From Saccostrea echinata (taxonomy: Eukaryota), in the NCBI RefSeq assembly GCF_033153115.1, contig NW_026889755.1, positions 7,316,001-7,380,000 of the forward strand: a stretch of DNA of 64,000 bases. The letters are read 5' to 3'. A program made the translations under genes and the position numbers. The notes beneath the pieces were generated by a model, which saw only the letters and a program-made list of their open reading frames with translations, was not told the origin of the DNA and searched no databases. Below, one piece after another: positions 1,714-16,362 of this stretch (positions are counted from its first letter, which is position 1; each line of letters begins with the position of its first letter).

Positions 1714-1914
1714 TCATTTTTATTATGGAATTTTTAAACGGTGAAGGCGAGGAAGGAATAAGTAAGAGGAAGGAGTATTTCCTCTCAAATACAAAACATC
1801 TAGTTCTCACAATTCCTTGCAGGCTAATAATTCAATAGTTTTTTAGAGAGAATAAACGATTATATAACGTCAGGGAAAAAAAGGGCAGGGGACTTTTAGT
1901 AGGATCTTGGGTAG

Positions 1915-3480
1915 TGTCGTGTCGCCCTATTGGGTGACCGCACTTATCTTGGGAATTTGTCTAGCTCGCTCGCTTGTGAGAGACCCTTATTTATAATGAT
2001 TCTGCTTTTCAGCCACCAGGTCCAGATTAGGTTTGGGTGCACTGTAATAAGGAAAAGCAAAGCGTGGATCAAATTAAAAACGATGTTACTTTATTCACGT
2101 CTCCGAATAGAATGCACAACAAAAAGTCACCAGGCACAATAAAATAAATCATTATGAGTTGCTCGTAGCATTACAAACAAGTGTGCCTTAACCTACCTAA
2201 CATCTGGTGACTCATAGAGTGATTAAACAATATTAAAAGACTCACTCTATATAATAAAAAATCTAGACAATGTAATTTCCAACTGAAATACTAAAGCTCG
2301 TACTTTTGTTTACACTGGATACATTTAAATTTACCTCCCTCGACTGGAGAGTTTGATAATAATAATAGAGCCAAACAAAGAAAGGCATTATATTTCCGGT
2401 ATAAAACCGATAAAAAGTAAAACGTGTCTAACTATAAAACTACACTCTACATAGGACTACAGCTACCAAAATACAAGAAAAATCATAAGAACACACATCA
2501 AATATAAATGCCCTGATCTCAATATAATACTTTTATAATAGATTTCTATTTTAATGAAAGCTCAAATTTTGTAAACTAAAGCTCAAATTTTTGTAAACTC
2601 CAGAAATTAATTGCAAATGTTAATAAATAATTAATTAATCTTTTCTTTATAAGTTCTAGAAAAATAACTTAACCAAATAAAACATTTTTACCATACCTGT
2701 AATAAGGAAAAGCAAAGCGTGGATCAAATTAAAAACGATGTTACTTTATTCACGTCTCCGAATAGAATGGCCGAGTTGCGGCACAATTCCATTCGGAGAC
2801 CCACGCTTGCCGTGAATTATTTTGTCCAATCAAATTAGTTTTTCTTTGTTAATTTGTATCAATAATAGCCAAAATATCGTATTTTGAAAAATCACATGAC
2901 ATGAACTGACCATTACCTGAGTATTTGACCTGCCACTTAACAAGTTAATCCCCTAACAATAGGTTAATGGATTCTACTTCGTTTGATAGTGTTTTTGACA
3001 CTAGATAAAAAAGATAAAAGAACCCATAAATAAATATACAAAAAAAACACATCACCTATCTACAAATTACTGCTGTTCTCTTTTTCCAGCAAAATTACAT
3101 AATTGTATGGCTAAAGGCTTAAACAGTTTACTAATCCCTCATGCCAAATCTTCTGAGTAACACATATTATTTATTTTAGACAATTACCTGTACTTATTTT
3201 TTTCTTCAAAGACATTCCTTCTTTTTCGTCAAATAAAATACTATTACCAAATTTCTATACATATATCTGAAATTGTAACAGGAAATAAAATAAAGACTTT
3301 ACTATATAATTCCTATAAAACGAGAATACCCAAAATGTTATGTTAAAATATCCACATACATTAATCTTAACCCAAATTGAAATATTAATTGACTAAAATT
3401 CAAAGTGAAATTTTATCTTTAATCATAACTGTCCTTTCTGACATATTTCATTTTGTCAAATAAAATCTGCAACATGACTA
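1915..3480 (-). repeat. 3' LTR
   Basis: Direct repeat of 12776-14341 at a constant offset of 10861. I saw no substitutions by eye, apart from the inverted segment 3430-3480. Confidence 0.95.
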
Positions 3481-3491
3481 TTTTCCCCCTT
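3481..3491 (-). promoter_or_regulatory. Polypurine tract (AAGGGGGAAAA)
   Basis: Purine run on the element strand directly abutting the 3' LTR. Confidence 0.85.
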
Positions 3492-4029
3492 GCTACCATT
3501 GCTTTCGTCCCTGAAAGCTCAAATTTTCCTCATGGATAATGAAAAATATTTAATTTGAAAGATATCCAAGGCATCAATTACATACCCTCGACAAAAAAAT
3601 TAATACATTGTTTTTCTTCTTTTTTTGTTTTTTGTTTTATGCAATATATCACATGTTTAAAAACTACAATTAAACCTATGGATAAAAAAATATTTATATA
3701 AAAAAAAAATATATATATACATGTATATACATAAAGGCAATATTGATACCCATATATGTGTTCATTTTGAATCCCTGAGATTTTTCAATACTTTATTACT
3801 TATAAGTGGGAAAAATGAACAAACAAATATCATAGAATAGTCATCCAATATTAAAGAGTAAAAAAACCAATGAGGTCCCTGTAAAAAGAATTCATACAAT
3901 AAATGGAAAAAGGAAAAAAAATTATTGAGTTGTGCGATTCAATGCAATGTTGACAACGGAACATAGAAAAAAATTAAAACCATACAAAAGGAATTGAAAA
4001 TATTGTTAATCTTTTCTGCACTGGGTCAT

Positions 4030-6444
4030 TTAAAGGGTAACCAGCATGTTTTTGTGTGGGTTATTTAGATGGAAAGCATAATTGTTGTGTAATAAGATGA
4101 CATAGGCACTGAATGGTTGTTTTAAAATTCTTTTGAGTTTATGGTGGGTAAATGGGTTGATGGTAATGGTTGATGGAATGGTAATGGTCATGTTGGTTCG
4201 AGTGTCAGTGACTTTGAAATTTGTCCACGTAGCTAATAATTTGCATGATGGAAAAGGAGTAATTGAAATATCTGCAATTTGAGGTGTTGAAATAGTGTAA
4301 TATGAAGGACACAAGGACAATCTAGTTATAAACACCATAACACAATCACCACCTGTAGTTAATTCTAGTGCCAAAATGGATCCTTTGCATGACTTTGATT
4401 TGTACATCCAGTATAAGAGAAGTCCCAAGATGACCAGTACAACTGTACTTAAAATAACTGATGCATGAATCCAAGTAAATTCTGAAAACCAAGTTGAGCT
4501 TATGTCTGTTGGATTAGGAGTTGAAGTTTCAAGTTTTTCATAAATGAAAGAAGGGACTTTGTCAGATGTGGCATTTTGTACTTGTTGTAGAACTAAAAGT
4601 GATGTTGACAGTTTTCTGAATTTCAAGACCAACACAATACAACATCCTAAACACAGTGCTGCAATACTTAAAGCTACATATGTTAAAATGTTGGAAGTAC
4701 CTAACCAATCATCTTGAATATCAATTTTGCCATCTATTAAAGGTTCTGCCAGAGTTTTGAAAATTTTCTCATCCTTTTTGGCTGCTTTAGCAATTTTCTT
4801 TAAACTTAAATGGGCTTTTTGATCATTTACTAATATCTCATTTAAGGAATGATTATAAAATTTCAGTTCAGGAATGGACATATTTATTGGTGTAGGAAAT
4901 AAACTGTCCCCAAACACATGTTCTAATTTAGAATCATCAAAAAATTCTTGTAATAAGGCCAAATTTACAGGATGGATCACTGAAAAATTTGAAGAAGAGT
5001 TGTAACAATCCACTAATCTTGGTGCATAAAACAGAGATTGGGTTGACAATGAGCATCTACAAGGAATATGAATGATGCAAAAAGCACATCCCTTTAAAAC
5101 TTTTTGTTCCTTTGGACAATCTAAGACCAAAGTTGGTGTATTATACAACAAAACTGAGGTTGATGTGATTTCAAAAATGTTTGCTTTCAGTAAAGAAGGA
5201 ATAAATCTAAAGTCACACAATTTTTGAACTTGTTTAACATCATTTGAGTATAAAGCCATTGTACAATCAGGTTCAGTTATAGGGGTCAAGGCCCTATTGG
5301 AATTACATAGTATGGTGGGTCCATGATCACAATTAACTAAATCTTCTGCTGATAACGAGACAAAATAATCATGGTGACTTGTGATTGCAAAATAATCTGG
5401 TGTGGACAGGAGCTGTGTAGCATGCATGTCTGAGGTTACATTGGTTGAGGTAGGAACAGGTAAACTAATGACCTTGAACAATTGTAAAGGTTGTTTCTGT
5501 GTTGAGATGGGAAATTTCACAGTAATGAATAATGATGATTTATCCCTTGCATACAAAAATTTTCCATGAGAATAATAAAATGAATAATCTGTATGAATTA
5601 AATAAAAATTCTTGTATGATTTTCTAAGTTTGAAATTGATATTGGAAATGGCTCTGGTGATTAAAAATTTTGGAATTAAAAATGGAGTTATCTTTCCTTC
5701 TAATAAACTCTGGACTGCAGCTGACAGTTTATCAAACTGGGTTCTCAAAAGAGTAGCTCTGTTAACTTGTGACATTAGAATTTTTGACACATTAACAAAA
5801 GATTTTTCCAAATCATATAATTTGTTATTAAAAGCAGTTGCAATTTTTGAAATGTACTCTGAATTTTCTTTGATACCAGCAGCTAAGTTGTCCATTCTGT
5901 GATTGCTTACAGTAATGAAAGATGACAAATGAGATCCATGTTGTTGCAGTGCTTTTGCAATATTTTCTGTTTTCCTATTTAATGCATTGATGTGTCCAGC
6001 TAAAATATTGACATCATCTATAGTTGCGGTGCCAAAAATACTTTTTGAGAGTGACCCAATAAATGGAAGTAAAGCTCGGAGTTGTCTACCTTGTTTTAAA
6101 ATGTTTGTTTGAGGAACTAAAGTTTTGATTTGGCGCATGGTTTCATTGAAATGAATTAAGGTTTCTTTATGTAATCCCTGGACAAAATTTGCAAGATTGT
6201 TTAACAAAACACATCCTTGTCGAAAAGTATGAACATTGCAAAAAGGTATTCTAGATACATGAATTCTTTTTGGAAGTTTCACATGAAAGGTATGGAGCCA
6301 ATACTCCTGAGATAAAATAATGCTTGATTGTTCTTTAAAAACTACCCCATAATTGATTCTCTGTACGATTTTGTCTTCAGTTTTCTCAGGTCTAGCTTGG
6401 GCTGGAATGGTTATCACAGTCATTACTGCTAACACAAGGAACAT
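4030..6444 (-). CDS. env: Envelope glycoprotein, class I fusion (F-type, similar in layout to baculovirus F and errantivirus Env), 804 aa
   Basis: N-terminal signal peptide, RQLR furin-like site (aa 120-123) followed by the fusion-peptide-like ALLPFIGSLSKSIFG, heptad repeat region, Cys-rich ectodomain with N-glycosylation sequons and hydrophobic TM segments. Lies between pol and the 3' LTR. Confidence 0.88.
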   Translation of the reverse strand: MFLVLAVMTVITIPAQARPEKTEDKIVQRINYGVVFKEQSSIILSQEYWLHTFHVKLPKRIHVSRIPFCNVHTFRQGCVLLNNLANFVQGLHKETLIHFNETMRQIKTLVPQTNILKQGRQLRALLPFIGSLSKSIFGTATIDDVNILAGHINALNRKTENIAKALQQHGSHLSSFITVSNHRMDNLAAGIKENSEYISKIATAFNNKLYDLEKSFVNVSKILMSQVNRATLLRTQFDKLSAAVQSLLEGKITPFLIPKFLITRAISNINFKLRKSYKNFYLIHTDYSFYYSHGKFLYARDKSSLFITVKFPISTQKQPLQLFKVISLPVPTSTNVTSDMHATQLLSTPDYFAITSHHDYFVSLSAEDLVNCDHGPTILCNSNRALTPITEPDCTMALYSNDVKQVQKLCDFRFIPSLLKANIFEITSTSVLLYNTPTLVLDCPKEQKVLKGCAFCIIHIPCRCSLSTQSLFYAPRLVDCYNSSSNFSVIHPVNLALLQEFFDDSKLEHVFGDSLFPTPINMSIPELKFYNHSLNEILVNDQKAHLSLKKIAKAAKKDEKIFKTLAEPLIDGKIDIQDDWLGTSNILTYVALSIAALCLGCCIVLVLKFRKLSTSLLVLQQVQNATSDKVPSFIYEKLETSTPNPTDISSTWFSEFTWIHASVILSTVVLVILGLLLYWMYKSKSCKGSILALELTTGGDCVMVFITRLSLCPSYYTISTPQIADISITPFPSCKLLATWTNFKVTDTRTNMTITIPSTITINPFTHHKLKRILKQPFSAYVILLHNNYAFHLNNPHKNMLVTL

Positions 6445-6470
6445 GGTATTGTGGAATCCCCCAAATTTTC

Positions 6471-6497
6471 CTACAAATATATTTATAGAAAAAAAAT
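6471..6497 (-). promoter_or_regulatory. Putative splice acceptor for a subgenomic env mRNA
   Basis: Element strand reads TTTTTTTTCTATAAATATATTTGTAG|G, ending 26 nt before the env ATG. Confidence 0.55.
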
Positions 6498-6994
6498 TTA
6501 AGGTTGTGGTACATTTGTCATGAAAACAAGAACCGATCGTTATTCGTGTTTTCTAGCACTATAAAAAACTGCAGAGTTAACTACATTGATTATCTGACCA
6601 TACCACAGCAATAATTCTTTTTCTTTATTTATGTGTAAAATTTAAGGTGTTAAATGGTAAGTGAAATTTCTGAATTTTAACTAAACAAAAATGAATGGCT
6701 AGCCATTTATAAGGGGATTTTACTGTTGACCAAATGCAATAACCCATAATAACTTGCAAATACATATCTAAAACATTTAGAAATAAAAATGAGACAAATT
6801 CACTCTATTACCCTTGCTAATTTATGAGTTTTCCATTCACACTTTCTTTATCTAACTTTTCACCTCTAATCAACCTTTTTTCTTTAATAATGCAGGTGCT
6901 TTAAGCTTTGGCATTAACATACTTTATGCAGTACACAAATGTTTTGGCATAAATATTTTTCTTAATGATTTCCTTTGTTAAATGTTAGTACTTC

Positions 6995-9900
6995 TTAATA
7001 TTTTCTCTTAAAACAAGTTTTCCTAATTGTTCCTAATTTTGTGAACTTTTTGTTTATGAGTTCCATAACTTCATCATCAAAACAGTGATCAGGTTCCCAT
7101 GTTTTGGAACCATCCTCCCACTCTACTCTTATTTCTCTTCTTCCATTTTTAAATCTGCCCCTTAGAAACTTTTTAAATTTCCATTTTCTATGTGGATCAT
7201 GTATTTCTTCATCTAACAAGTCTGATTCATCTTCATTCCCTTGACCTTGGTCAATGTTTGCATCATTTGGAACAACTGTTCCTTCACCTTGATCATTACC
7301 TGTATTTGCATCTGTGTCATTTTGAGATTGACCTTGATCATTTTGTACAGTGTCATCATTCTGTCGACCTTGGGGTGGATCAACTGGATCCTGACCTTGA
7401 CCATTCTGAATCTGAATTTGTTGCTCGGGTTGCTCAAAGTTTGGTCTTTCATCTTCATCATAGTAATGTTTTAAGTTTGATGCATTCATCATTGACATGT
7501 GAAGTTTGTTGTCCGATTTTCTCTTCAGTTTATAAGTGAAGTTGGGACCAATTTCAACAATTTCATAAGGTCCCTCAGATTTATCATACAGTTTGCTAGA
7601 TAACCCCTTTGGAACCTTGTTAATTTTTATCAGTACTTGATCGCCAAGTTTGAAATCTGGGATTTTCACATTTAAGTCATGCCTAGTTTTGTTTTGCTCT
7701 TGATGCCATTTTATGTTCTCTTTAGCAATTTCGTCATGGACTTTAAGATTTTCTAGAAACTCATTGATGTAGGCTTTTGTGTCCCTACTCATGTTTTCAA
7801 GTGGTTCTAGCGCAACATCATATGGGAGGCGCATTTCTTCCCCAAACATTAAAAAGAAGGGGGAGAACTCTGTGGAATGCATTGAGGGTGCTTTTCTGTA
7901 AGCCATTAAAATACTTGCAATTAATTTTGGCCAATCATTTTGAGCTTTCCCACAATATGCCCTCAAGGATTGTGCAAGTGTACTGTTTTGTCTTTCCACT
8001 AAGCCATTTGTTTTTGGATGATAAGCTGAAGTTTGATGTTTAGTAATTTCAAAAATTTCACATAATGCCTTTACCAATTTAGACATGAAATTTGTGCCTC
8101 TGTCTGAAACAAGAACTTTTGGAGCACCAAATCGAGAGAAAATTTCTCTGAACAGTACATTTGCAGTTTCCTCTGCTGTTTGAGTTCTCATAGGGAAACC
8201 TTCCACCCATCTAGTGTATGAATCTACACAGAGTAAAATGTGTTCATGTCCCTCTTTTGTTTTGTAAAGGGGACCCAAAATATCAATGTGCCATCGATCA
8301 AATTTGTGCACCATTGGGAGAGGGTTCATTGGAGGTTTTGACGGATTGTAGTCACGTTTTGCGCGTTGACAGCGATCACAAGATTTCACGTATTCGATGA
8401 TGTCACTATGCATACGCGGCCAATAGTATTTGCGGTAGATAGCGGTCCTTACCTTTTCAATGCCTAGATGTCCTCCTCCTGCCAGACTGTCATGATAAGA
8501 CAATAATGCATCTTTTCTAAGCACTTGAGGTAATGCAATTTGCTTGATAAAGTTGAATTCTCCTTGAGGTTTACGACATCTTCTCTGAAACCAGTGATAC
8601 AACACATCCTCTACCATGCTATAATGTTTGGCTTCTGCTATCACTGCATCTCTCGTTTTGACTTCTGCTGGCAATGTTCCATCTTTAAGATATGTATAAA
8701 TATCTTGAAAATCTTGGCACTGGGATTGGAGTTGTCCAATAGTTGCTACATCCAGAGGAATTTGCTGATGTTCTTCAGGTTCATCCTCCTCCTCTATAGC
8801 TAAGGTCTCGGGTTCCTCATTTGCATATGTGAAACTTACCTCTACACAACAAGCTTCTTCTAGGGAATCCTGTTCATCCACTAATGTATCTGGAAGATTC
8901 TCTGTTTGAATACTGACTGAATTTATACTTGGCAACTTTTCTGGGTGTTCGTCTCCCTCATCTTCACTCTCTGTGTCTGAGAAATTAATATTTGAGGTTT
9001 GGCTACCCACGGATCTGACTTGGGTGTCACTTACTTCTAACTGTACTATCTCTGCTTTTTCCTCCTCCAGTGAGTTGTTCGAGTCCTTTTCTGCTGAAAT
9101 TCTGACAATACTTGTTGCTTGTCTTACCCCAGGTTGATATTCTCGTCTACTGAGAGCATCTGCTACTAAATTGCTCTTACCTGGTCTGTGTATGATTTGG
9201 AAGTTGTATTCTTGTAGCTGGAGAGCCCATCTTTCTAAACGACCAGTGTGTTTGGCTGTTTGCAGCCAAACAAGTGCTTTGTGATCAGTAATTACTGTAA
9301 ACCTACTGTGTACCAGATAAGGTCGAAATGCGGCAATGCCTTCCAGCACTGCCAAGCATTCCTTTTCGGTAGTATTGAACTTCCTCTGATCTTGACTGAG
9401 AGACTTACCTCCATAGGATACTACATATTCTCGATTATCATCATCTACTTGGCCCAACACATACCCAATGGCATTGTCAGAGGCGTCACATGTCAGTATG
9501 AAAGATCTAGATGTGTCTGGGTATGACAAAATTGGGGCAGATAATAACTTGTCTTTGAGGGTATCAAAGGCATTTTGGCAAGATTCAGACCATTGAAATT
9601 TTCTCTCTTTACATAACAAGGCATTAAGTGGGGTAGCAATTTTAGCAAAATCTTGGATAAATTTCCGATAATAGTTTGCCATACCCAGAAAACTACGTAC
9701 CTGTTTCTGTGTCTTGGGAATGGGAAACTCACTGACCGCACGGGTCTTGTCAGGGTCTACTTGTACTCCCTTACGTGATATAATGTGCCCTAAGAACTTA
9801 ACTTCTTTGACGGCAAAGTGACATTTTGATGGCTGCAGTTTCAAATTTGCCACTCTCAGACGATCAAACACTTGTTCTAAGTGTTGCAGATGTTCATCAA

Positions 9901-11365
9901 AGGATCGCGAAAAGATTAAAATATCATCCACGTAGACAAGTACCGATTTCCAATTTAACCCTCTCAGCACATTTGACATAAGTGTTTGAAATGAAATGGG
10001 GGAATTAGTAAGGCCAAATGGCATACGTTTCCACTCATACACTCCTTCTCTTGTTATGAAAGCTGCTTTCTCTCTACTTTCCTCATCCAGTTCCATTTGC
10101 CAGAATCCAGACATGAGATCTAAATTAGTAAAATAGTTTGCTCGTGCCTCACCTATAGCATCAAAAACACTTTCCAAATGGGGAAGTGGGAAGGACATGG
10201 GTACTGTAATTTTGTTTAAAGCACGATAATCACAAGCAAACCGAAATTGACCATTCTTTTTCTTTACTAAAACCACTGGCGAATGCCATTCTGAATTTGA
10301 TGGTTGTATAATACCATGATTTAACATTTCTGAAATTTGTTTTTGAATTTCTTTTGAAGCTTGAGATGATGTTCTGTAAAACTGTTGGCGAACAGGCTTT
10401 GAATTTGGTTTTATTTCAATTTTATGTTTGTAAGCACTTGTCCTTCCCAGTTCACTGAGGTCAACAGCAAAGTTACTTCGATGTTTTGCTAAAAATTTCA
10501 GTAAAACCTCTTTTTGATTTGGATCTAAATCGGAATTCTCTAAATCAAATGCAATTTCACTTGGTTTTTGACCTTTGGAATTGTCTGGATTCAACGCACT
10601 GATACTCATTGTCTCATTTTCTAAGGCATACACTTCTCGAGTTTGCACCTCACACACATTAGCTACTACAAAATTCTTTGGTAAGTACACATCCTCAAAT
10701 GTAGGATTAATCAACCTCATAACCACATCATCTCTGATACTTACCAAGCATTTAGCACCAGATAATTGTAAAGATTGCAACTCTTCATGAGGTTCTAACA
10801 GTACTTGCTCACCTAATTTTTGTCTTGAAATATGTACAGGGACATTAATTTCACACCTTTGGGGAATTTTCATAGCACATTTTACACGGGCATACCCATT
10901 GTTGATCGAAATTGAACAAACATTTGCATCACCATTGTGATCTGGAATGTGTAGTGTATTGGTCTCAGAAAACCTAAGAGTTGTGTTGTTTGCACACAAG
11001 AAATCTACTCCTAAAATGAAAGCATGGTGTAAACCATCTACCACATGAACTGAGAAGTTATAATCCTGACCATTGATATCTAACTTCATCTCTAACTTAC
11101 CTGCCACAGGTAACAATTTGCCACTAGCACCCTTAACTGATCGGAAATCAGGTGATGTCAACCTATCATGAGCATAAATAGTCTTTCTAAAGAACTCTAA
11201 ATTCATAATTGTAACAGAAGCACCAGAATCCACTAAAGCACTAGTTTTTCTTCCACCGACTTGCAGTGGAATTGTGTTCTTTGTCATGTGTGCCACTAGA
11301 TTGACTTGTGGCTGGTTGTCATGGTGCCCATCTCTAGAATGTTTTCTAAAGACAGGCGCGCACCC
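6995..11365 (-). CDS. pol: Pol polyprotein (protease, RT, RNase H, integrase, C-terminal chromodomain-like module), in frame with gag
   Basis: Motifs LVDSGAS (PR), YVDD (RT), CDAS (RNase H), H..H..CDRC, IDILGP/SDRG/VERQN (integrase DDE), GPY and VEWEDGSKTWEP. The frame is open from 11365, directly after the gag TAG. The ORF track starts it at a GTG at 11296. Confidence 0.95.
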   Translation of the reverse strand, partial: GCAPVFRKHSRDGHHDNQPQVNLVAHMTKNTIPLQVGGRKTSALVDSGASVTIMNLEFFRKTIYAHDRLTSPDFRSVKGASGKLLPVAGKLEMKLDINGQDYNFSVHVVDGLHHAFILGVDFLCANNTTLRFSETNTLHIPDHNGDANVCSISINNGYARVKCAMKIPQRCEINVPVHISRQKLGEQVLLEPHEELQSLQLSGAKCLVSIRDDVVMRLINPTFEDVYLPKNFVVANVCEVQTREVYALENETMSISALNPDNSKGQKPSEIAFDLENSDLDPNQKEVLLKFLAKHRSNFAVDLSELGRTSAYKHKIEIKPNSKPVRQQFYRTSSQASKEIQKQISEMLNHGIIQPSNSEWHSPVVLVKKKNGQFRFACDYRALNKITVPMSFPLPHLESVFDAIGEARANYFTNLDLMSGFWQMELDEESREKAAFITREGVYEWKRMPFGLTNSPISFQTLMSNVLRGLNWKSVLVYVDDILIFSRSFDEHLQHLEQVFDRLRVANLKLQPSKCHFAVKEVKFLGHIISRKGVQVDPDKTRAVSEFPIPKTQKQVRSFLGMANYYRKFIQDFAKIATPLNALLCKERKFQWSESCQNAFDTLKDKLLSAPILSYPDTSRSFILTCDASDNAIGYVLGQVDDDNREYVVSYGGKSLSQDQRKFNTTEKECLAVLEGIAAFRPYLVHSRFTVITDHKALVWLQTAKHTGRLERWALQLQEYNFQIIHRPGKSNLVADALSRREYQPGVRQATSIVRISAEKDSNNSLEEEKAEIVQLEVSDTQVRSVGSQTSNINFSDTESEDEGDEHPEKLPSINSVSIQTENLPDTLVDEQDSLEEACCVEVSFTYANEEPETLAIEEEDEPEEHQQIPLDVATIGQLQSQCQDFQDIYTYLKDGTLPAEVKTRDAVIAEAKHYSMVEDVLYHWFQRRCRKPQGEFNFIKQIALPQVLRKDALLSYHDSLAGGGHLGIEKVRTAIYRKYYWPRMHSDIIEYVKSCDRCQRAKRDYNPSKPPMNPLPMVHKFDRWHIDILGPLYKTKEGHEHILLCVDSYTRWVEGFPMRTQTAEETANVLFREIFSRFGAPKVLVSDRGTNFMSKLVKALCEIFEITKHQTSAYHPKTNGLVERQNSTLAQSLRAYCGKAQNDWPKLIASILMAYRKAPSMHSTEFSPFFLMFGEEMRLPYDVALEPLENMSRDTKAYINEFLENLKVHDEIAKENIKWHQEQNKTRHDLNVKIPDFKLGDQVLIKINKVPKGLSSKLYDKSEGPYEIVEIGPNFTYKLKRKSDNKLHMSMMNASNLKHYYDEDERPNFEQPEQQIQIQNGQGQDPVDPPQGRQNDDTVQNDQGQSQNDTDANTGNDQGEGTVVPNDANIDQGQGNEDESDLLDEEIHDPHRKWKFKKFLRGRFKNGRREIRVEWEDGSKTWEPDHCFDDEVMELINKKFTKLGTIRKTCFKRKY

Positions 11366-12751
11366 CTATTGTTTACTGTTTTGAAACGAGGAAGTGTGCT
11401 TGTGGTATTTTGAGTGTGTTACTGTGCGTGAACGTTGCTGTAAGTGCTGTGCGTAAGAAGAGCAAGTTTTCTTAAAATGACCCAATTTACCACAAAAATA
11501 ACAGCTTGACATATTAACCTTTTTAGCATTGCAATTGAAAGAATCGCATAACTCACCAGAACAGTTGTGACAGGAACCTCTCCCATTGCTTGGCCTATTC
11601 TGAGGATGTCTGGATCTGGGTCCCTGATATTGTGTCTCCTGTCTAGCCTGCCGTTGGGAATGCTGATAGCCACCATTTCCCTGTTGAAAGCGGTTTCCAC
11701 CATTTCCCTGTTGAAAGCGGTTTCCACCATTTCCTTGTTGGTAAGGCCTACGGGGTCCACCATTATTCCTCCATGGCTGGGACTCTCTCGGTGGGGCCTG
11801 CTGAGAAAATTGGGCATCGTTCACTGACTCCTGTATGGCGTTTATGTCAGTCCTCACTTCCTGTAGAGCATTCAGCAAGGCTAAATTGGTTGAGTCCTGC
11901 ACTGATGAGGTTTTCTGTCTGATTTTGTTGGCAAGTTCGGCTCGGCATGCACAGTTCCTCAGTTGTTCTAAAGAATGAGGGTCATCCTTTACCACATCCG
12001 CACTTATGTCTGGCTTCAGTCCATTAATTATGACTGTAATTAGCCAGTCCTGGTCTACACTTCGGTCATTGGTCATACTAGTCACTCGGTGTATAAAGTC
12101 CTCTACACTTTCTTGGTCCTTTTGTTTAACATCCATCAGTTGTAAATTATGTCTTGAGGACGGCTGGAATCGATTATGTAAGGCCCTGCGAATAGACTCT
12201 AGTGACGATTTTACCGTGCGGTCCAAAGCGTAGAACCAGCTTTCGGCAGCCCCTTCCAGATAAAAGGGGAGGGTGTTGATGGCGACTTCCTCTGTGAGCT
12301 TTTGGAGGTTAATAAAGGTTATGAACTTGTACCACCATTGTACCACAGACACCTTCCCATTGAATTTTTCAAGTCTAACTTTGGGAAAAGATGAGCTTCC
12401 CTGAGAGTTGGTTGTATAATTCCTGTTGGTTAAAGAAGAGGGTGGATCAAAAGTGAGTGGGATTGGGGGTTGTCTGGTTGACACTTCCCTCAACTGTCTC
12501 CTTAGGGATTCAATTTCTTCTTCTTTTTCGTCTAACTCTCGGTTTCTGCGGTCTTGGAGACGTTGTATCTCCTCCTGTTGACTTCGTAACTCTCTCTGTA
12601 ACGAACTCACTTCTTCCTGGTTGTAATCTTCCTCGATGGTGTCGGAGTTCTCCGGTGCTGAAGCATTAGATGGAGCAGGCATTTTGCTGTACTTTCTTAA
12701 GTTATATCGGTGAAAGGCTGTATTTTCTTTCAACTCCACAATATGGTTCAT
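11366..12751 (-). CDS. gag: Gag (coiled coil, capsid, Q/G/N-rich repeats, zinc knuckle)
   Basis: 461-aa ORF just after the PBS. LEKFNG...WW capsid start, QKDQESVEDF major-homology-like motif and CYFCGKLGHFKKTC CCHC knuckle. The ATG at 12682 (MPAPS) has the better Kozak context. Confidence 0.93.
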   Translation of the reverse strand: MNHIVELKENTAFHRYNLRKYSKMPAPSNASAPENSDTIEEDYNQEEVSSLQRELRSQQEEIQRLQDRRNRELDEKEEEIESLRRQLREVSTRQPPIPLTFDPPSSLTNRNYTTNSQGSSSFPKVRLEKFNGKVSVVQWWYKFITFINLQKLTEEVAINTLPFYLEGAAESWFYALDRTVKSSLESIRRALHNRFQPSSRHNLQLMDVKQKDQESVEDFIHRVTSMTNDRSVDQDWLITVIINGLKPDISADVVKDDPHSLEQLRNCACRAELANKIRQKTSSVQDSTNLALLNALQEVRTDINAIQESVNDAQFSQQAPPRESQPWRNNGGPRRPYQQGNGGNRFQQGNGGNRFQQGNGGYQHSQRQARQETQYQGPRSRHPQNRPSNGRGSCHNCSGELCDSFNCNAKKVNMSSCYFCGKLGHFKKTCSSYAQHLQQRSRTVTHSKYHKHTSSFQNSKQ

Positions 12752-12759
12752 CCGGGTTT

Positions 12760-12773
12760 CGGATTCTCCACCA
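12760..12773 (-). promoter_or_regulatory. Primer-binding site, tRNA-Ala-like (TGGTGGAGAATCCG)
   Basis: Starts 2 nt inside the 5' LTR boundary and is complementary to a ...TTCTCCACCA tRNA 3' end, as found in tRNA-Ala. Confidence 0.8.
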
Positions 12774-12775
12774 GT

Positions 12776-14341
12776 TGTCGTGTCGCCCTATTGGGTGACC
12801 GCACTTATCTTGGGAATTTGTCTAGCTCGCTCGCTTGTGAGAGACCCTTATTTATAATGATTCTGCTTTTCAGCCACCAGGTCCAGATTAGGTTTGGGTG
12901 CACTGTAATAAGGAAAAGCAAAGCGTGGATCAAATTAAAAACGATGTTACTTTATTCACGTCTCCGAATAGAATGCACAACAAAAAGTCACCAGGCACAA
13001 TAAAATAAATCATTATGAGTTGCTCGTAGCATTACAAACAAGTGTGCCTTAACCTACCTAACATCTGGTGACTCATAGAGTGATTAAACAATATTAAAAG
13101 ACTCACTCTATATAATAAAAAATCTAGACAATGTAATTTCCAACTGAAATACTAAAGCTCGTACTTTTGTTTACACTGGATACATTTAAATTTACCTCCC
13201 TCGACTGGAGAGTTTGATAATAATAATAGAGCCAAACAAAGAAAGGCATTATATTTCCGGTATAAAACCGATAAAAAGTAAAACGTGTCTAACTATAAAA
13301 CTACACTCTACATAGGACTACAGCTACCAAAATACAAGAAAAATCATAAGAACACACATCAAATATAAATGCCCTGATCTCAATATAATACTTTTATAAT
13401 AGATTTCTATTTTAATGAAAGCTCAAATTTTGTAAACTAAAGCTCAAATTTTTGTAAACTCCAGAAATTAATTGCAAATGTTAATAAATAATTAATTAAT
13501 CTTTTCTTTATAAGTTCTAGAAAAATAACTTAACCAAATAAAACATTTTTACCATACCTGTAATAAGGAAAAGCAAAGCGTGGATCAAATTAAAAACGAT
13601 GTTACTTTATTCACGTCTCCGAATAGAATGGCCGAGTTGCGGCACAATTCCATTCGGAGACCCACGCTTGCCGTGAATTATTTTGTCCAATCAAATTAGT
13701 TTTTCTTTGTTAATTTGTATCAATAATAGCCAAAATATCGTATTTTGAAAAATCACATGACATGAACTGACCATTACCTGAGTATTTGACCTGCCACTTA
13801 ACAAGTTAATCCCCTAACAATAGGTTAATGGATTCTACTTCGTTTGATAGTGTTTTTGACACTAGATAAAAAAGATAAAAGAACCCATAAATAAATATAC
13901 AAAAAAAACACATCACCTATCTACAAATTACTGCTGTTCTCTTTTTCCAGCAAAATTACATAATTGTATGGCTAAAGGCTTAAACAGTTTACTAATCCCT
14001 CATGCCAAATCTTCTGAGTAACACATATTATTTATTTTAGACAATTACCTGTACTTATTTTTTTCTTCAAAGACATTCCTTCTTTTTCGTCAAATAAAAT
14101 ACTATTACCAAATTTCTATACATATATCTGAAATTGTAACAGGAAATAAAATAAAGACTTTACTATATAATTCCTATAAAACGAGAATACCCAAAATGTT
14201 ATGTTAAAATATCCACATACATTAATCTTAACCCAAATTGAAATATTAATTGACTAAAATTCAAAGTGAAATTTTATCTTTAATCATAACTAGTCATGTT
14301 GCAGATTTTATTTGACAAAATGAAATATGTCAGAAAGGACA
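12776..14341 (-). repeat. 5' LTR
   Basis: TGTC...GACA termini. Contains a CCAAT box, an Inr-like CCATTCT (about 13625-13631), and AATAAA in both copies of a 73-bp internal repeat (12903-12975 and 13558-13630). Confidence 0.95.
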
Positions 14342-15973
14342 GTAGCATTAATTGGTATATGCATTTACACCGAAATACTAATGAAAAAAAAACATAATAC
14401 AAGGCATTTTTCCTCTACGTAAAACAGCTGATCTTATAGGCAAGGACGTAATTTCAGTGCAGGAAGGGGAGGGGGCACAACTTATGCAAAGAAAATCCCT
14501 TGACAAGTAAAAAAAAAGGTCACATGCGTCATTTTTGAGGAAGCAATATTGAATAATATATGCTGGCAATTTATTGGGGACACACACCCCAACCAATGTT
14601 TTTACAGATCTTACATTAGCCATTATAATAAGGCACATATAAAAAAAATCACAAAACAGGCACTTTCCTTAGGGTAAAAAGAAACACTAAAAGATATTGC
14701 TGGATATTTCACTGTAGGCAAAAAATTCTATTATCTTTCTAGTATAAATACATATACCAAAAATGTTACACAAGACCCTACTAAAAGTTTAATTTTTCTT
14801 TTGTGACCCCCCCCCCCCCCACAGACTTCCTCGCCTTCACAGTTTTATTATTGTGATTGCTACGCACGCTAACTCGAGAATTTTGCTTACGTTTCACATC
14901 CATTGAATTCAATATAAATGATAATTTGGACATTAAAACTTGTTTGAATGCAAAGAAAAACTCATTAGTAACGGACTAAAAATTTAAAAAAATAACAGTG
15001 TCAAAAAGTAATTTGCTCTTATTTTCAACTCCTTTCATAAGGGGGTAGAAAATTTTATCAATTGAAATCAAGCTTTAAAACATTACCAGATTTTCAAATA
15101 TTCACGGAAATAGATAGATGAATCTCAAGTCTCTCAGTATGTTTAACTAATGCAAAATTGAACATATTGAGGAGGGGATGGTAAAATTGTTATTTCTTAA
15201 AGTTATATTCACAAGGGGACTATCATTGGAAATCGAATGCAGAAAATTTCCGAAAAAGGCATACTGTCAAGTCCTTCAGAATATAACAGAAAAGTCAGTA
15301 ATTCTTATGCTTCTTTTTATTCATAATAGAAAGATAAGTGCAATTGTCCAGCGTCATTCACCAAAGGAGCCAAATGAATGTGGTTCAAACTTCGTTATGT
15401 TGAACTCGATGAGACGGAGAAAAAAACAGAGAGATATCCTAGAGTTCAAGATATTGAGGGTAAAATACTTAAGGAAAAAGTGTTTTGGACTTCAACATCA
15501 TTTTGACATATCTATATCGAAATATCCGTGTTCGAGATAAGGAAGTTCAACTGTATTTTCATAACAAATTGTTGGATCTGCAAGTAGGTATCTAATTATA
15601 GTTCATTAAGATAATAACCAAATGACGAAGATCTCCACTAATATAACAAAATGTAAAGAAAAGTGAGATGACATAATTTTAAGATTTGCATTACAAATTT
15701 GAATCATGTTCCTTTGTTATTTTCTTTCTACAAGAACTAGGGTATACATATATACTTAATAATATTATATTTATGATCGATTTTGGCTAATCATAGTTTA
15801 ATCTCTGAGATGCATTCAGGAAATGTAACCATTTACGCACACAGAAGGCGACGGACTACGATGTTTACCATGCACTGATCATGTGATTTATTATAACACG
15901 TAAAGTAATAAGGAACTTCTTAAATGCATTTTCCTTAAATTGCAAACATCTATACGTACAGTGACATAATGAA

Positions 15974-16182: not shown

Positions 16183-16362
16183 ACCGTCACGGTAGCTCAG
16201 TCGGTAGAGCGCTCGCTTCGTGATTGAAAGGTCGTGTGTTCGAATCACGGCCGCGTCTGACCTAAAAAAATAGGTAGCAACTGTTCCTTCGCCAAGCGCA
16301 CGGCACTTTGGAGTGAAAGTTGTGGGTCTTTCGGATGAGACCTTAAGAACCGAGGCATCGCA
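16183..16362 (+). mobile_element. tRNA-derived SINE, 3' truncated
   Basis: Box A TAGCTCAGTCGG, box B TGTTCGAATC, then GGTAGCAACTGTTCCTTCGCCAAGCG and TCGGATGAGACC...AACCGAGG core. No tail. Confidence 0.7.

Follow-up and report, generated by a model that had tools for sequence, protein, structure and literature searches.

In this study, we analyzed a 64,000-nt stretch of Saccostrea echinata DNA (hereafter the window, to which all coordinates refer) containing what its sequence identifies as an intact, env-carrying Ty3/gypsy (Metaviridae) element of the 'ancient errantivirus' type. The gag and pol genes of this element are separated by a single in-frame UAG, and programmed readthrough of that codon, setting the ratio of Gag to Gag-Pol, is very probably the best explanation of its presence. 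An earlier note on this DNA had inferred the same, and that proposal is now supported by the conservation of the TAG together with that of a hairpin which is locked in position behind it and covaries. Comparison with related elements indicates that the signal is a lineage-wide trait, not specific to the window copy, and that it has been under selection across an old lineage.

The gag-pol junction of the window copy

11366..12751, minus strand: gag, from its first ATG at 12751, 461 codons with TAG at the end
6995..11365, minus strand: pol, in the gag frame, with protease, reverse transcriptase (RT), RNase H and integrase (Pfam), 1456 codons ending in TAA
11326..11357, minus strand: hairpin of 13–14 bp in the minimum free energy (MFE) fold

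Analysis of the open reading frames (ORFs) revealed that gag and pol share one frame with a single TAG between them. As the earlier note described, gag closes with CAA-TAG at 11371–11366 on the minus strand (TAG at 11368–11366; context CAA-UAG-GGG), followed by the 8-nt spacer GGGTGCGC at 11365–11358 and then by a 13-bp stem with arms at 11357–11345 and 11338–11326, three G-U pairs and the loop AAACAT. One extra A-U pair is possible, which would give 14 bp and a 4-nt loop. MFE folding yields this hairpin in three folding windows, with z scores of −3.7, −4.5 and −5.2, and in each of them none of 200 shuffles was as stable. Rfam gave no match over 1800–14500. The GTG 69 nt past the stop is present as noted earlier, but is a start assigned by the ORF caller. 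The proposed GGUGC/GCACC alternative pairing stood in part, as it occurs as a basal extension in the MFE fold of the window copy but is not conserved across the 20 rows compared.

Potential pairings of a pseudoknot were also sought. Pairing of the loop with the tail amounts to 2 bp in the window copy and to 2–7 bp, not conserved, across the 20 rows (40 nt of tail examined). Since there is no conserved second stem within 40 nt, the signal appears to be a hairpin and not a pseudoknot. Pairing of the spacer with the tail does not exceed that of shuffled sequences in almost all of the 20 rows; only family L052 clearly departs from this (8 bp versus 5.0). L052 and L215 have a long-loop stem with a loop of about 50 nt, and the 8-bp pairing of spacer and tail is a possible alternative state.

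Conservation of the stop, spacer and stem among diverged families

To define the conserved features of the junction, 17 families identified through similarity of their proteins were compared, represented by one copy each, 13 from the genome of the window and four from metagenome contigs. Families were included if a gag-side frame of >50 codons ended at an in-frame stop <130 codons before the protease motif, whereas near-duplicates, decayed copies without a readable motif, the frameshifted L072 and elements without such a stop were excluded. The presence of a stop was thereby selected, but its identity and the bases that follow it were not. Protease identity across the families is 20–95% (median 37%), and the stop is TAG in all 17, whereas pol and env of these families end variously in TAA, TAG or TGA. 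High levels of conservation were also found past the stop, with G at +1 and +2 and C at +6 in 16 families each, a purine at +3 and G at +9 in all 17 and, within the 5' arm of the stem, C at +10 and +11 in 17 and T at +12 in 16. Immediately 5' of the TAG, 14/17 families have A. A type III hexanucleotide, by the definition in the available part of PMC13517186, is present in 15 families including that of the window copy; it reads UAGGGA in 12 and UAGGGG in three, the window copy among the latter.

A contiguous stem of 8–14 bp starts at +9 in 16 of the 17 families (p <= 0.05 each versus shuffles of the 3' part), the exception being L070, in which a bulge follows the first 4 bp (z −2.6). On average, the best stem measures 10.0 bp when started at +9, versus 3.4–5.0 bp at offsets +1 to +8 and +15 to +25. 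The stop lies 6–35 codons from the zinc knuckle and 43–106 codons from the protease, and over the same linker the other two frames contain 1–13 stops. A short degenerate pattern of the signal has 29 sites in the genome versus none for a reversed control.

Covariation within the stem, which the earlier note had proposed to test, was found. In a set of eight families with a gap-free 40-nt span, 96% of cells pair, four of the 13 pairs change on both sides and six on one side, none of 500 shuffles reaches the paired fraction or the score, and slid registers give 27–51%. A second set of eight families, with a 31-nt span, is considered below; two rows of each set came from the pattern search, in which the outer pairs are fixed. 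Codon usage also shows that the constraint operates at the RNA level. At +9, the last base of its codon, G is invariant, although this codon encodes six different residues; the proline codon is CCT in 16/17 families versus 19 of 69 in the window pol; and the 3' arm alternates between glycine and arginine codons, both pairing with U. As a control, the catalytic aspartate codon is split 7/10, and the glycine of that motif is GGT in 14/17. The stem spans 31, 37, 40 or 76 nt, values that are equal modulo 3 in 20/20 rows; stem lengths thus differ by whole codons, which argues that the frame runs through the stem.

Relationship of the signal to the phylogeny of the elements

In quick RT-RNase H trees (no bootstrap), all elements having both stop and stem fell into one clade, with Shimodaira-Hasegawa-like approximate likelihood ratio test (SH-aLRT) values of 100, 89 and 97 in three trees; in the elements that fell elsewhere, the ORFs overlap or there is a single one. 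A scan for RT had identified 80 distant loci, three of which served as the outgroup; the label 'caulimovirus' for them is inferred. On one tree the stop label needs three changes, which is compatible with one gain and two losses. The first loss is in the sister of L215 (L219, L222, L224 and L225), 92% identical to it over 4.2 kb, in which gag and pol are fused in one ORF of 1,645 codons. Its stem is disrupted: over the 75 columns that begin at the stop, identity falls to 65%, the lowest bin, although the gag side itself reaches only 69–80%. That this single-ORF sister, checked at the DNA level, also lost the stem supports a link between stop and stem. Its env is absent beyond a 33-residue trace. 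Env was found in 10 of the 11 stop-plus-stem loci fetched far enough, in addition to the window copy, and was not found in L217.

The second loss is in elements without gag, whose pol starts at an ATG. These LTR (long terminal repeat) elements are L205–L208 and L220 (G000 C1:49.31 Mb, C47:5.20 Mb and C14:7.27 Mb). The two that were mapped in full are 7–8 kb long, have LTRs that are 99.9% alike and contain one intact ATG-started pol with no gag or env. Proteins similar to this pol occur in other data sets (P0062, P0074 and P0075). It is likely that such elements borrow Gag in trans.

Loci outside the sample were also surveyed, in 79 host-like contigs binned in bacterial metagenome-assembled genomes (MAGs). 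Of these, 28 have no protease motif, 15 have a single ORF, 26 have another frame or are decayed, four are at an edge and six have an in-frame stop. Five of the six fall in the clade with a knuckle just upstream: in three the stop is TAG and a stem begins at +9 (z −3.3, −3.5 and −0.8), whereas the other two, which are sister loci, have TGA-C without such a stem. A swap between two known classes of leaky stop at one site fits readthrough well. The sixth, L314, was disregarded as it has no knuckle and an RT identity of 47%. Many contigs of bacterial MAGs (L244–L322) carry intact animal-type gypsy elements, some with env, and are most likely host contamination. Among viral contigs scanned with the protease alignment, the 163 pattern matches included no relative.

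Alternative explanations and evidence against readthrough

One alternative is that the TAG arose as a mutation that disables the element, with a hairpin behind it by chance. A DNA search for copies gave 17 matches, of which 11, at 98–100% identity and at distinct target sites, all keep the TAG and an identical stem; four of these are tandem LTR-gag fragments. Of the other six matches, three have TAG, two lack the region of the stop and one, a decayed copy, has a sense codon there. The earlier note had regarded a sense codon at this position in other copies as refuting readthrough. Such codons do exist, though only in three decayed copies (L014, L032 and L036, the latter two belonging to other families) and in single-ORF relatives. 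These would favor a dead copy, whereas the TAG shared by all 11 young copies and by families down to 20% protease identity, the identical LTR cores of the window copy and of the copy at C25, and the variable terminal stops of pol and env do not. We give this explanation next to no credence, as it is refuted by the conservation of the TAG, and the view of the earlier note that the TAG is not disabling is borne out. The tandem array (L242–L243, G000 C25:8.95–8.97 Mb) has four units of ~3 kb, comprising LTR and gag of the window family and each cut 28 codons into pol.

Pol might also be made separately from its own AUG, by reinitiation, internal entry or a subgenomic RNA, with the hairpin serving that process or, for example, packaging. 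The presence of three gag-less elements with an ATG-started pol nested in the clade would suit this, as would the in-frame ATG that is found past the stop in the window copy (the first being codon 27) and somewhere in 13/17 families. However, four of the 17 families have no such ATG before the protease and in the rest its position varies over codons 3–85; the stem keeps its place relative to the stop and not to the ATG, the knuckle or the protease; its length, upstream of the ATG, changes by whole codons only; and the stem is gone from the sister in which the two frames are fused. We therefore consider separate synthesis of Pol improbable. Less probable still is that TAG|G is a splice acceptor from which a spliced RNA would join gag to pol without the stop. 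TAG-G fits the acceptor consensus and is invariant in the 17-family set, and the element appears to splice from a donor inside gag. That donor is in phase 1, as are 19 of 20 donor-like matches within 400 nt in the 20 rows, whereas TAG|G is in phase 0, so that splicing between the two would not preserve the pol frame. In addition, the preceding base is mostly A, there is no pyrimidine tract (U+C 0.28–0.67), and two in-clade loci have TGA in place of TAG. A-to-I editing, which in hepatitis delta virus converts a stop to a tryptophan codon, could do so here in a fraction of RNAs, as it would turn both UAG and UGA into UGG, and the UAG can be paired in a longer MFE fold of the window copy. The conserved duplex, however, begins only at the ninth nucleotide past the stop and so does not include it, and a contig spanning 11305–11532 lists no change at the stop, which is weak evidence as contigs drop rare variants. 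We rate editing as no less remote than splicing to the stop.

Several observations weigh against programmed readthrough itself. The varied in-frame ATGs past the stop have been mentioned, and the gag-less relatives indicate that free Pol is possible in the lineage. The stop is evidently dispensable in some branches, given the fused, env-less sister of L215, whose LTR pairs are 99.3–99.6% alike in two copies, and P0076, P0083 and P0102, which also look fused. L245 (z −0.8) and L072 (z −1.5) have only weak stems, and L249 has none. The covariation is weaker in the 31-nt set: there 94% of cells pair and two of 10 pairs covary, a result reached by 142 of 500 shuffles, and the four basal pairs are nearly invariant and so uninformative. 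As the families are related, all such counts overstate their independence.

Proposed mechanism of readthrough

In our model of programmed readthrough, one genomic RNA would yield much Gag and little Gag-Pol, with ribosomes reading through the UAG a few percent of the time. The GG-rich 3' context and the hairpin after 8 nt would aid this, the hairpin lying at the mRNA entry channel of the ribosome while the UAG is in the A site. A near-cognate tRNA, by analogy with murine leukemia virus (MuLV) one for glutamine, would then be favored over eRF1, and the resulting Gag-Pol fusion would be processed by the protease that it contains. In addition, in-frame splicing past the knuckle, the stop and pol is predicted to yield a third product, Gag(-NC)-Env.

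Comparison with known readthrough systems

The comparisons below draw on the available parts of the sources cited. In Moloney murine leukemia virus (MoMLV), readthrough of a few percent needs the UAG, the 8-nt spacer and a structure starting at G9, and the spacer places that structure at the mRNA entry channel; an H-type pseudoknot defines the gammaretroviral signal (PMC3159437, PMC13517186). The element studied here resembles MoMLV (type III of Beier and Grimm) in its in-frame gag-UAG-pol arrangement, where the stop falls after the zinc knuckle and before the protease motif, and in having an 8-nt spacer with G1 and G2 and a structure from G9 (PMC3159437, PMC13517186). It differs in having a simple hairpin, with loops down to 3–4 nt and no conserved second stem, in place of the pseudoknot. 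The G5/U6/C7/A8 pattern of the MoMLV spacer is also absent, C at +6 (16/17) being conserved instead (PMC13517186). The description 'gammaretrovirus-style' in the earlier note therefore holds for the stop context and the spacer length but not for the plain hairpin, which lacks a conserved pseudoknot, or for the Ty3-like RT. Given the latter two features, the likeness to the MuLV signal is probably convergent. By analogy, the signal likely works as that of MuLV does, although it lies outside that structure class and that virus family.

The form of the structure is like that in alphaviruses, coltivirus, furo- and pomoviruses and the Drosophila kelch gene, in which a stem-loop with compensatory changes lies 8–9 nt past the stop, and long-loop versions such as that of L052 are also known in the alphavirus-type group (PMC3159437). 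That group uses UGA-C (type II), whereas the clade studied here has mostly UAG-G, with one branch having UGA-C. Among retrotransposons, a single in-frame gag-pol stop, which has been called very rare (PMC3441728), is shared with the fungal Ty3/gypsy elements Tj1, Tosmo1-3 and Tcry1 and the copia elements Tca2 and VdLTRE5, and in Tj1 the stop is needed for transposition (PMC4600332, bioRxiv 10.1101/2022.12.06.519325, PMC3441728). The fungal elements differ in their hosts and in using UGA (as in Tj1, Tosmo1-3 and Tcry1) with a short sequence context, and neither a conserved hairpin nor env is described for them in the available text. In organization the element is like the 'ancient errantiviruses' of bivalves, which are multi-copy LTR-gag-pol-env-LTR Ty3/gypsy elements with an F-type env, and which the supplement of PMC13524379 lists in Crassostrea and clams. 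The main text of that paper contains no occurrence of read-through, frameshift or splic-, and Saccostrea is absent from it and from supplement file 1. We found no UAG-plus-hairpin signal in animal gypsy elements in the literature, with partial coverage that did not include Repbase, such that an earlier mention is possible. In animal viruses, experimentally shown readthrough is limited to four genera (PMC13517186).

The clade offers about 20 natural, alignable variants of a minimal signal of UAG, 8 nt and a hairpin. Their stems may be short, long or bulged, one branch has switched to UGA-C and one sister has no stop, which makes the rules for spacer and stem directly testable. The signal would also be a case in which another virus family has converged on the solution used by MuLV. 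Gene callers divide such elements into two at the stop or annotate them as broken, even though these shellfish elements are intact and have moved recently.

Env and a probable gag-to-env splice

4030..6470, minus strand: env, F-type class I fusion protein (open frame from stop to stop 4030–6552)
11551..11557, minus strand: splice donor G|GTGAGT in gag, exon end 11557, phase 1
6471/6470, minus strand: env splice acceptor, phase 1
about 11459–11506, minus strand: CCHC zinc knuckle in gag

The env frame (4030–6552) has no Pfam match itself, but all five homologues scanned match Baculo_F. Homologues numbered 140 among 8,000 scored candidates, the best being 93% identical and named from Saccostrea cucullata, which suggests an oyster as host. 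Searches of the PDB with the sequence and a profile gave only coiled-coil-type matches. A model from an alignment of 78 sequences (pLDDT 78.9, compared with 33 for a single-sequence fold) had as its best Foldseek match respiratory syncytial virus (RSV) F, with an E value of 1.5e-10 and a TM score of only 0.23. Judged from sequence and model, the third ORF therefore encodes an F-type fusion protein; a third ORF for an F-type or gB-type fusion protein is what defines errantiviruses in the wide sense.

The splice donor precedes the CCHC knuckle, with 188 nt between it and the TAG. The sequencing data were three small-share runs, available as contigs only, whose status as RNA is a guess; in one contig of run X3, 11557 is joined to 6470 with GT..AG ends, whereas a second contig comparison showed no splice joint in the parts covered. 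As both sites are in phase 1, 410 gag-frame codons would continue into env just before its hydrophobic leader. A phase-1 donor-like site occurs 98–194 nt before the TAG in 17 of the 20 rows, and the gag-to-env join is also present in six NCBI gene models, chosen for their length or a Gag domain, from Saccostrea, Mytilus, Pinctada and Haliotis. No paper on an in-frame gag-to-env splice was seen in the titles or the beginnings of abstracts in the literature.

Possibly, though we propose this only tentatively, a whole ancient clade of env-carrying animal Ty3/gypsy elements independently evolved a gammaretrovirus-like UAG switch from a plain hairpin, within a three-way programme run from one RNA. 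In that programme the stop would give Gag, readthrough Gag-Pol and the late-gag splice Gag-Env, with the Env signal peptide tethering or releasing a capsid-domain protein at the membrane, and readthrough and env would travel together and both be lost on return to intracellular life.

Organization of the element

12776..14341, minus strand: 5' LTR (core 12776–14291 and a 51-nt terminal piece, 14291–14341)
12756..12773, minus strand: primer-binding-site-like sequence, starting TGG, 2 nt past the 5' LTR; its role is suggested by its position
3481..3490, minus strand: polypurine tract, likewise assigned by position
1915..3480, minus strand: 3' LTR (core 1915–3430 and a 51-nt piece next to the polypurine tract, 3430–3480)

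The element has the features that define Ty3/gypsy elements: LTRs with a target duplication, gag, and a pol in the order protease, RT, RNase H, integrase. The two LTR cores are identical over 1,516 nt, and a 4-bp target-site duplication at 14342–14345 and 1911–1914 flanks the TG...CA ends. From stop to stop the gag frame covers 11366–12787 (473 codons), with matches to Retrotrans_gag (E 4.5e-8) and zf-CCHC (E 0.0017). The RT matches Ty3-G with an E value of 1.5e-86, versus 1.3e-30 for p80 retroviral RTs, and was placed among gypsy-like elements in trees, outside the retroviral RT lineage to which gammaretroviruses belong. Each LTR contains an exact 73-nt direct repeat, at 2042–2114 and 2697–2769 (655 nt apart) and at the matching places in the 5' LTR. 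Two tRNA-like sequences (Leu and Thr) lie near the ends of the element, at 1415–1505 and 16186–16258, and may be tRNA-derived repeats; neither is an amber suppressor, in a search that covered the window.

An inverted left end of the provirus

At this end, 14291–14341 repeats in inverted orientation the ~51 nt past the polypurine tract (3430–3480), and its terminal TG thus derives from an internal CA. No paper on such an end was found in the literature, and it is possibly more novel than the readthrough. Our guess is that the integrase uses an inward-facing internal site and that host repair rejoins the flipped piece. Five further elements of this clade showed no such inversion. Within the window family it is present at six of the eight left ends examined (it is absent at C38 and was not found for C17), and it occurs also in the C7 family. 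Each inverted-end copy with both ends checked has a 4-bp target duplication, and the inner junction of the inverted piece varies, leading into unrelated DNA in two copies.

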